From: a virus
Taxonomy: Duplodnaviria; Caudoviricetes
Length of the DNA: 64,000 nt
Strand: one strand, 5' to 3'
Virus record (IMG/VR): IMGVR_UViG_2731957753_000001
Coordinates: 1-64,000 of that record
How positions within the stretch are numbered: the first letter of the stretch is position 1; each line of letters opens with the position of its first letter. The position numbers and the translations under genes were made by a program. Shown in pieces: positions 52,196 to 54,844 of this stretch. Below the pieces are notes generated by a model. The model worked only from the letters and a program-made list of their open reading frames with translations. It did not search any database and was not told where the DNA came from.

Positions 52196-52432
52196 TCAGG
52201 CGACCTGCGAGGCCGCCCATTTCAACCATTCGGGTGCATACCCGTGCTTGTGGTGTTCGCCGACCACAGTTACCGGGGTGGATGCGTATCCGAGGCTGCG
52301 CAGGTACTCCCCCGCGGCAGGGTCCTCGGTCACATCGATCTTCCGATAGGTGGCGCCGAGCTGATCTAGCTTCCGGGCGACCGCCTTACACGGTTGACAA
52401 TCTGGGCGGCTATATACAGTTATTTCAAGCAT
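52196..52432 (-). CDS. nrdH: NrdH-like glutaredoxin
   Basis: TVYSRPDCQPCKAV...GYASTPVTVVG. Confidence 0.9.
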   Translation of the reverse strand: MLEITVYSRPDCQPCKAVARKLDQLGATYRKIDVTEDPAAGEYLRSLGYASTPVTVVGEHHKHGYAPEWLKWAASQVA

Positions 52433-53373
52433 CAGGGCAGGCGAATTCCAAGGTCAGGCAGCGGCGGCAACACGAGCGCCGGCAACGGGGGCGGGATATA
52501 GGCGAGGGCTTCGGCCGGCAAGTACTGCTCAACCTCGTCGGGCACGTACTCATGCAGCGGGGTCGGCTCGTACGGCGGCATGCCGTAGAAGTTCGGCAGT
52601 GGGCCTGGTTCCCATGTCGGGATCGGCGCGGCCGGGTATTCGGTGGGCAGCCCGGTCGGGGTCGACTCGGGAAGCACCGGGATCGGTGTCGGCGCCTGCA
52701 CCAGGGTTTCCTCACCCGCGGGGTATTCGTCGGCTTCACCGGGACGGTACGAATGCCAGCCCGACAGCGCACCAACAACACCCTGGACGAAACCAACAGG
52801 GTCACCGAGCGGGTTCGGCGAGTCGCAGGCTGCGTCGAATTCGTGGCAGACGCTCGTGGTGTTCGGGTGGTTCTCGCGCCGCCCCGGCGAACTCACACCC
52901 GGCAGGAACCCGGGCAGAGCATCATAGATACCGCCAGCAGTCCGCGGATCCCCATACACGACAACCTCATCGGCCAGCGCGGCCTCATCCCCCGCGATCT
53001 CCGCACCCAGAGAATGCCCAATCACCTTCACATGACCACCAGGGCACGCGGCGCGGTAGTCGGCGATAGTGTCCCGGAGGATAGCTTTCCCGTCGGCGAC
53101 CGATTCATCCCTCGTGTACGGTCCGGTCGGCCAAACCGAGGACTTGTAGTCCACCGAGACCGTCTGACGCCCCAACGTGGCCTCACGATCCAACTGCCGG
53201 CTCATCAAATTCGGCAGCCCAGCCGTCTCGACCAACCTTTGCCCGTTCCCGCCGACACCGATCGTGACCGGACGACAGTCCGGGGCACCAACAGCGGGCG
53301 TGGCGAACGCAAGCGGCCCGAGCCATACGACACCAGCGGTCACGCATACAGCGGCCGTGAGACGACGAGACAT
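52432..53373 (-). CDS. Secreted cutinase / PE-PPE-like alpha/beta hydrolase with Pro-rich tail
   Basis: Signal peptide, GHSLG nucleophile elbow, CHEFDAACD, GWHSY. Confidence 0.85.
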   Translation of the reverse strand: MSRRLTAAVCVTAGVVWLGPLAFATPAVGAPDCRPVTIGVGGNGQRLVETAGLPNLMSRQLDREATLGRQTVSVDYKSSVWPTGPYTRDESVADGKAILRDTIADYRAACPGGHVKVIGHSLGAEIAGDEAALADEVVVYGDPRTAGGIYDALPGFLPGVSSPGRRENHPNTTSVCHEFDAACDSPNPLGDPVGFVQGVVGALSGWHSYRPGEADEYPAGEETLVQAPTPIPVLPESTPTGLPTEYPAAPIPTWEPGPLPNFYGMPPYEPTPLHEYVPDEVEQYLPAEALAYIPPPLPALVLPPLPDLGIRLP

Positions 53374-53399
53374 GGCGCCTCCCGACGCTGCGAAGTTTG

Positions 53400-53740
53400 A
53401 GCCCGCCGGCTCCCAGGTAGCGACAACCGGCCGGCGGGCAGCCGCGGCGCCAAAGGCAGCCAGCGGCGAACGCCAGCGAGATCACCTACAACCGCGGCGT
53501 GAGATCCTGCGGCGGCCCCGGAAACGTGAATGGGGCACGAGAGCGCTGGCGAAATCTGTTAGAATGCAGGCGAAAGCCCCAGTGTGCGCCGCCTCTGCCA
53601 TAGCATGCGGCATCGCCTCTACCCCTGCTAGGGGGCAAGCGCCTGGGGCTCTCGCCATTCTCGCGGTAGGTGTTCTCCTGGCAGCACCGCCACTACCTTC
53701 ATTGCGATACCCCGCAGGGTCGCACCACGCATGTATGCGC
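53400..53740 (+). ncRNA. Candidate structured RNA, antisense to the late operon
   Basis: Nested helices closed by GAGATCACCTAC/GTAGGTGTTCTC; GAAA tetraloop; G-U pairs favour the + strand. Confidence 0.5.
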
Positions 53741-53749
53741 AGTTAAGAT

Positions 53750-53842
53750 TCAGCCGATCAAGGCGAGAATGTCGATCAGTGCTTCGACAACGATCATGCC
53801 GATCTTGCCGAGCAACAGAACAGAATCAAGATCAATGCTCAT
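53750..53842 (-). CDS. 30-aa hydrophobic peptide
   Basis: AGGAG-ccccgg-ATG; MSIDLDSVLLLGKIGMIVVEALIDILALIG. Confidence 0.6.
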   Translation of the reverse strand: MSIDLDSVLLLGKIGMIVVEALIDILALIG

Positions 53843-54720: not shown

Positions 54721-54762
54721 AAAAGCCCGCCGAAGTGAGCACCGTTGGGAGGCTTGGCGGGC
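54721..54762 (-). terminator. Terminator-like hairpin after the tRNA
   Basis: GCCCGCC...GGCGGGC followed by TTTT. Confidence 0.65.
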
Positions 54763-54769
54763 ATCGTTG

Positions 54770-54844
54770 TGGCAGTGGTCGGATTTGAACCGACGTCCTC
54801 TTGGGTATGAACCAAGCGCGCTCACCGAACTGCGCCACACTGCT
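54770..54844 (-). tRNA. tRNA-Met (CAT), initiator-like, CCA not encoded
   Basis: Cloverleaf AGCAGTG/CACTGCC, D-arm GCGC/GCGC, anticodon arm CTTGG-TTCATAC-CCAAG, T-arm GTCGG-TTCAAAT-CCGAC. Confidence 0.92.

Follow-up and report, generated by a model that had tools for sequence, protein, structure and literature searches.

A predicted structured RNA with a covarying fold ahead of the terminase genes in one Nocardia temperate phage lineage

We analysed a 64,000-nt stretch of viral DNA (the window; positions 1 to 64,000 of IMG/VR record IMGVR_UViG_2731957753_000001), which represents a phage or prophage region in a Nocardia genome of 7.4 Mb. The interval 53395–53750 of the window, which lies between an ORF for a 30-aa hydrophobic peptide and the gene of a cutinase-like esterase, very probably encodes a new structured RNA on the minus strand. 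Comparison of its homologues shows that the predicted fold is under selection, and places the RNA on the strand of the surrounding genes rather than antisense to them. Judging from sequence comparison, the RNA forms a family without earlier description, whose range, as far as searched, is one lineage of Nocardia temperate phages.

The window carries the long form of the element, 356 nt in length (53395–53750, minus strand), with homologues in 16 Nocardia genomes and in viral contigs. Both covariance models built for the family match the minus strand, R1 at 53395–53556 with 123.9 bits and R2 at 53661–53750 with 82.2 bits. The borders of the element are sharp and conserved, and blastn matches start and stop at the edges of the interval. 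The short form of the element is ~255 nt, while the largest copy found elsewhere reaches 408 nt. No reading frame stays open across the whole family, and at least 10 members contain stops in each of the six frames, which leads us to reject a protein-coding reading of the interval and bears out the statement of a first-pass annotation of this DNA that no credible ORF lies between the peptide and the cutinase. The interval folds better than dinucleotide shuffles, with z scores of −3.7 on the plus strand and −2.7 on the minus strand. A search of Rfam 15 (4227 models, including GOLLD, ROOL, T-box, cobalamin, group I intron, EAR and pRNA) with the window copy, a typical short form (L036) and the most divergent long form (L060) gave no relevant match at E values up to 10, and we found no paper describing this RNA in the literature. 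The suggestion of a new non-coding RNA in the first-pass annotation thus holds, in the form of a conserved, covarying structured RNA without an Rfam match.

We collected 21 distinct copies, including one truncated copy, from Nocardia prophages and three metagenomic viral contigs. A blastn search of the interval against 267 Nocardia genomes finds the element in 14 genomes besides the window's own, and pattern scans together with the two covariance models added viral contigs from IMG/VR and a metagenome (L060 and L065/L086) and a divergent copy in one Nocardia genome (G120) that blastn missed. Specifically, the IMG/VR pattern scans yielded two new true members, L060 and L065, and the metagenome scan a sole addition, L086, the scores of which equal those of L065. 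Low-GC matches of model R2 (L059, L067, L063, L068 and their relatives) were rejected as chance matches to coding sequences, for example to the N-terminus of a terminase.

At the family level the element occurs in two forms, the short form and a long form that carries 104–144 nt extra at one fixed point (53557–53660 in the window). The truncated copy, in Nocardia thailandica (L035:545-830), arose naturally; it retains the 3′ domain and the insert, and its 5′ domain, which comprises hairpins M1 and M2 and a candidate pseudoknot, is swapped for unrelated sequence. The core domains are 76–80% identical at the nucleotide level, compared with 66–68% for the nrdH-like, MKFRLKL and DUF7427 genes of the same phage pairs, and the RNA is better conserved than the neighbouring genes in 63 of 66 comparisons.

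The distribution of the RNA follows that of one type of small terminase subunit (TerS). Relatives of the window's small terminase with at least 43% identity are present in 16 of the 267 Nocardia genomes, and in all 16 the RNA is found 2–3 kb upstream on the same strand. In contrast, none of the eight genomes that hold only a distant TerS (35–40% identity) has the RNA, with the G120 copy serving as positive control. Model R1 finds no copy in 142 genomes outside Nocardia, drawn from 33 genera in the same GTDB family, and blastn in distant mode with the window copy and the typical short form finds no match among 50,697 phage records; both searches cover samples, and absence beyond these is not proven. 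Two of the small-terminase homologues, G171:C26:39069-39545 and G120:C1:49414-49884, contain one in-frame TGA each.

The evidence for the fold comes from base-pair counts across the family. The consensus structure was drawn by hand and then tested by counting pairs, with ~66 base pairs kept; a slid control, in which the 3′ partners were moved by 1–3 columns, was counted alongside. In MAFFT alignments, standard pairs occupy 98.8% of cells in the 5′ domain and 92.2% in the 3′ domain, compared with 21–49% in the slid control, and 11 pairs are changed on both sides. In model-fitted alignments of 19–20 sequences, which lean towards the structure, the paired fraction is 98.9% in the 5′ domain (alignment A6) and 95.0% in the 3′ domain (alignment A5), compared with 22–51% when slid; both-side changes are seen in 3 pairs of the 5′ domain and 26 pairs of the 3′ domain, 29 in all, giving a covariation score that is unmatched by any shuffle. 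The most divergent members provide the clearest examples. In G120, the stem of hairpin M4c is entirely replaced, M6 has CCAACAG/CUGUUGG in place of CCGGAC/GUCCGG, and M2 has ACCCC/GGGGU in place of ACCUC/GAGGU; in L060 M4a changes from CCCU/AGGG to CUCU/AGAG and M5 from GCCGC/GCGGC to GCCGU/ACGGC. An all-against-all column screen for further covarying pairs was too noisy at 19 sequences.

Read 5′ to 3′ on the minus strand, the RNA is composed of a leader, hairpins M1 and M2, hairpin S1 with the candidate pseudoknot, the optional insert, a three-way junction, hairpins M5 and M6, and a tail. The single-stranded leader (53744–53750, minus strand; consensus ACUUAAC in alignment A3) has its first bases in common with the stop codon of the peptide ORF. 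In most loci, upstream ORFs of different families stop 0–10 nt before the CUUAAC of the leader (53742–53752 in the window), and in L051 the upstream stop codon is the UAA within the CUUAAC motif. M1 (53724–53743, minus strand) is a 7-bp hairpin with a conserved G-U pair (pair 11/24, GU 13, GC 4 and AU 2) and a neighbouring pair that alternates between UA and CG (pair 10/25, UA 11 and CG 7). The most conserved piece of the RNA is M2 (53704–53723, minus strand), a hairpin of the form GCG-ACCYC / GRGGU-AA-CGC with an AA bulge, which is 100% paired and in which pair 34/45 is UA in 14, UG in 3 and CG in 2. S1 (53663–53697, minus strand) is a GGYAG/CURCC hairpin with a variable pair 64/77 (UG 13, CG 3 and UA 3). 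The loop of S1, CGGUG or GCGGU, is complementary to CACCG or ACCGC located 11–19 nt downstream, and this second stem, S2, would form a candidate H-type pseudoknot with S1, the third loop of which is purine-rich. Despite changes in loop length, S2 has 5–6 Watson-Crick pairs in all 20 copies that contain the 5′ domain.

The optional insert domain (53557–53660, minus strand) is present in nine full long forms and in the truncated copy and is absent from 11 short forms; it contains a basal stem, GCCCCNG/CNGGGGC, in which a C-G pair changes to A-U, and two to three copies of AGAGGCG. The M4 three-way junction follows (53471–53551, minus strand), with a closing stem, M4a, hairpin M4b and variable hairpin M4c, and is likewise marked by pair changes. 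M4 reads CGCCAGC/GCUGGCG in the window and CGCCACC/GGUGGCG elsewhere, a pair in M4b is GC in 16 and AU in 4 sequences, and the loop of M4c is AUCUCACG in most members; the replacement of the M4c stem noted for G120 is also complete in L060. M4b corresponds to the GCCCCG/TGGGGC helix of the first-pass annotation, which is thus part of the conserved fold. M5 (53440–53468, minus strand) is a long hairpin with two bulges and both-side changes in 6 of 12 pairs. The adjoining M6 (53401–53439, minus strand), an 11-bp GC-rich hairpin with both-side changes in 8 of 11 pairs and 98% of cells paired, is the 10-bp stem that the first-pass annotation placed at 53401–53440. Its invariant loop is 18 nt long and contains the motif CGCUACC, invariant in alignment A4. 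The 3′ tail (53395–53400, minus strand; consensus CARCUUC) is conserved in the family. We considered two partners for the CGCUACC loop and adopted neither. Pairing with the D-arm of the phage tRNA-Met was rejected, no complement being found and GGTAGCG not being enriched in the window, and pairing with the S1 strand GGUAG was rejected as three members with GGCAG or GGCAA do not covary.

Several helices proposed from the window alone do not belong to the family fold. The longest of these, with 11 of 12 bp (53478–89/53666–77), would connect the pseudoknot loop with the M4 junction; it is strong only in the window (−27.5 kcal/mol, z −6.3), is lost in L051, L060 and L065, and shows no covariation, with self and cross values of −15.2 and −15.4 kcal/mol and a permutation p of 0.66. 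The helices GCGGCG/CGCCGC and GCGCTGG/CCAGTGT compete with the conserved M4 and M4c and need the insert, which half of the members lack, and the GGC-GAAA-GCC hairpin is not conserved among the other long forms.

The strand of the RNA can be read from the wobble pairs. From G-U pairs and the GAAA loop in the window, the first-pass annotation had favoured the plus strand, with an RNA converging on the peptide gene; the family reverses this assignment. In a strand-neutral count, in which G-U and A-C are scored alike in the choice of register, there are 1087 Watson-Crick cells and 7 other mismatches, together with 39 cells that read as G-U for a minus-strand RNA and 6 that do so for a plus-strand RNA. 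For the 5′ domain, the model-fitted alignments give 33 G-U for the minus strand against 1 for the plus strand. Two positions that would be A-C mismatches on the plus strand in 13 of 19 sequences show exactly the alternation with G-C and A-U that G-U pairs show. Independent support is provided by tRNA islands, which lie on the strand of the RNA in all 17 loci with enough flank. The G-U counts and the tRNA strand therefore indicate that the RNA is co-directional with its neighbours, beginning at the stop codon of the peptide gene without real overlap.

The genes around the interval are all on the minus strand. In the order of transcription, they are a tRNA-Met gene, a 165-aa ORF and a 58-aa ORF with weak similarity to minor tail proteins, the 30-aa ORF, the gene-free interval and the cutinase-like esterase, followed by an NrdH-like glutaredoxin, a DUF7427 protein and the small and large terminase subunits. 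Upstream, islands of 1–14 tRNAs are located 0.8–2.3 kb from the RNA on the same strand in 16 loci and in the window. The phage of the window has only the tRNA-Met (54769–54844, minus strand), and relatives have islands of 8–14 tRNAs (L042:3516-5395, L040:11-1308 and L035:3033-4885). A marginal Rfam match to the abiF RNA motif (37.7 bits, with a threshold of 37) lies directly downstream of the tRNA-Met, at 54725–54761 on the minus strand.

Downstream, terminase and structural genes follow at a distance of 2–3 kb on the same strand, and the intervening module is syntenic, with a secreted cutinase-like or other signal-peptide protein, an NrdH-like gene, small conserved ORFs, DUF7427 and terS. In the window, the downstream gene encodes a secreted cutinase-like esterase (52432–53373, minus strand; Pfam Cutinase / PE-PPE). 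Its ribosome-binding site (RBS) sits in a small conserved palindrome (53374–53394; GGCC-RGGA-GGCC or GCGCC-AGGA-GGCGC) 20 nt past the RNA tail and just before the ATG, as in most loci, and this palindrome could be a hairpin for local translational control. The direct neighbours of the RNA are inconstant on both sides. Upstream genes vary by locus, and L048 has a divergent one there, with ~75 nt left for a promoter; L039 lacks a cutinase gene at this place, an nrdH-like gene beginning 218 nt downstream of the RNA. Moreover, in L032, L036 and L037 a cassette is placed between the RNA and the cutinase-like gene (L036:3230-3322), with a near-perfect −10 hexamer (TACAAT, TAGAAT or TAGACT) and palindromic operator-like repeats such as TAGTGT-CA-ACACTA, which suggests repressor-controlled expression of the secreted esterase.

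As to function, we tentatively favour, at somewhat less than even confidence, a trans-acting mechanism, in which an autonomous folded RNA of the tRNA-island region binds a macromolecule. The RNA would be transcribed jointly with the tRNA-island region and would accumulate as an autonomous folded species. Its invariant loops and junctions, namely the CGCUACC loop, the M2 hairpin and the pseudoknot region, would bind a host or phage macromolecule, so that the RNA might act as a scaffold or decoy connected with tRNA and translation or with counter-defence, not as a regulator of one neighbouring gene. Autonomy of the RNA is suggested by the promoter/operator cassette downstream of it in three loci, the divergent gene upstream of it in one and the replacement of the cutinase by an nrdH-like gene in one. 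Its build is modular, with an optional insert and a variable M4c.

Several observations weigh against this account of an autonomous RNA or against parts of its evidence. No conserved promoter was seen upstream of the element in the family and no U-rich terminator after M6, and the RNA may exist only within a long mRNA. In most loci the RNA ends 20–60 nt before the RBS of a secreted-protein gene, and its other end touches the stop codon of an upstream ORF, both of which fit a cis element. The phages that supplied the members are all close relatives, so the counts lack independence. Taken alone, the 3′ domain gives a weak strand signal, at 11 against 13 cells in the model-fitted alignments and 9 against 5 in the strand-neutral count, although 6 of the 13 contrary cells are explained by an M5 bulge that shifts by one base. 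Finally, the pseudoknot stem S2 stays a candidate, because it shows no covariation and chance matches of 5 bp are not rare within a single sequence.

A broader proposal, which we consider possible and rather doubtful, is that the RNA represents a new class of mid-sized ornate phage RNA beside tRNA islands, a smaller actinobacterial counterpart of GOLLD and ROOL with a biochemical activity of its own. Such an activity might be the binding and disarming of a host factor aimed at tRNAs or ribosomes, self-assembly, or catalysis, and the RNA would not be a mere leader. GOLLD and ROOL are phage and prophage RNAs 'often near tRNA islands', and one studied GOLLD lies downstream of a Met-tRNA (PMC12286853). 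The RNA described here resembles them in its phage or prophage location near tRNA islands, found in each of the 17 loci with enough flank, in its multi-domain fold with pseudoknots (a candidate here), in its variable or optional regions, and in having no known protein partner or function. It differs in being two to three times smaller (255–408 nt against roughly 500–800+ nt), in its unrelated sequence and fold, and in its very narrow distribution in one Nocardia phage lineage. Other actinobacteriophage intergenic RNAs of unknown function have been detected by RNA-seq in cluster A mycobacteriophages, at the right end of L5, D29 and StarStuff and at D29 63-64 (PMC5712189). These differ from the present RNA in having another genome position and no reported covariation-supported fold, and there is no blastn similarity in the phage collection.

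The main rival to a trans-acting RNA, which we regard as unlikely on balance, is a cis-acting element of the left-arm/late operon, either a processive antiterminator that acts by modifying the RNA polymerase transcribing it, as in HK022 put or Bacillus EAR, or a structure for mRNA processing or stabilisation, that secures the expression of ~30 kb of packaging and structural genes. Like put and EAR, the element is a structured RNA in the sense strand of a long operon of co-directional genes, at its head or close to it, without its own promoter or terminator, and its constant position and strand relative to terS in the 16 lineage genomes fits such an element. EAR has a pseudoknot, as the present RNA may have. 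However, at ~255 nt even the short form is two to four times larger, and far more ornate, than put (~70 nt) or EAR (~120 nt), and it matches neither of them in sequence or structure nor any other Rfam family. In addition, the promoter/operator cassette follows the element in three phages, so the genes downstream need not depend on RNA-containing transcripts.

Control of the downstream secreted cutinase-like gene by a riboswitch-like sensing leader is improbable. A complex fold with invariant junction nucleotides, situated 20–60 nt upstream of the RBS of a signal-peptide gene in most loci, is in keeping with such a leader, but the distance to the RBS and the sequence in between are variable, and a separate local hairpin holds the RBS. 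Moreover, no alternative pairing connects the fold to an expression platform, the one strong alternative helix being the window-specific one described above, and M6 lacks a U tract and has an invariant loop of 18 nt. The gene to be controlled also differs in L039, and a promoter intervenes in L032, L036 and L037. It is the lack of a conserved expression platform that makes the riboswitch reading unlikely.

We give still less weight to a self-processing RNA, that is, a new ribozyme that would separate the tRNA-island region from the late genes by cutting the polycistronic transcript. In its size, its candidate pseudoknot, its three-way junction and its unpaired invariant nucleotides the RNA resembles mid-sized ribozymes, and the conserved boundaries are sharp, but there is no similarity to the ribozyme families of Rfam and the sequence data indicate no cleavage site.

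Very unlikely, in turn, is a site acting at the DNA level, such as a cos or pac site, an origin or an attachment site. The presence of a non-coding element throughout the lineage, a few kb ahead of the terminase genes, might be expected of such a site, but the helices are preserved by compensatory changes, G-U pairs are tolerated on one strand only (33 against 1 in the 5′ domain), and hairpins are swapped or inserted with the fold kept, which is not how double-stranded DNA sites evolve.

We find scarcely credible a plus-strand antisense RNA serving as type I antitoxin to the 30-aa peptide, for which speak the hydrophobicity of the peptide, its homologue at the same position in one other phage and the well-folding plus strand of the window, but against which stand the wobble statistics that put the RNA on the strand of the peptide, the lack of gene overlap, the absence of the peptide from 19 of 21 loci and the failure to find a plus-strand promoter-like site in the window. 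The first-pass annotation had proposed such a module on the model of txpA/RatA, and the likeness extends to a small hydrophobic peptide gene that adjoins a structured non-coding interval in the window. Unlike the RNA of txpA/RatA, this RNA runs in the direction of the peptide gene without overlapping it; the upstream neighbours vary, one of them being divergent (L048). The type I reading loses its basis because of the strand result and because the window and L051 are the only 2 of 21 loci in which the peptide stands beside the RNA.

The peptide ORF itself (53750–53842, minus strand) is best described as an upstream neighbour and not a conserved partner. Its sole homologue by tblastn is L051:4226-4330, in a metagenomic phage, which encodes 37 aa with 45% identity at the same position, and the two peptides have the core LGKIG.IV..AL.D in common. 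The ORF may be a real small membrane protein.

These results correct a tempting misreading, since a hydrophobic micro-ORF beside a folded interval does not here amount to a type I toxin-antitoxin pair. The small size of the RNA, its optional domain and its natural truncated copy make it tractable for deletion, pull-down, probing and structure work, and it occurs in culturable actinobacteria, including clinically known Nocardia species. GOLLD and ROOL are a standing puzzle, and the Nocardia phage RNA would offer a compact example, ~255 nt in length, with strong covariation and the same genomic habit.
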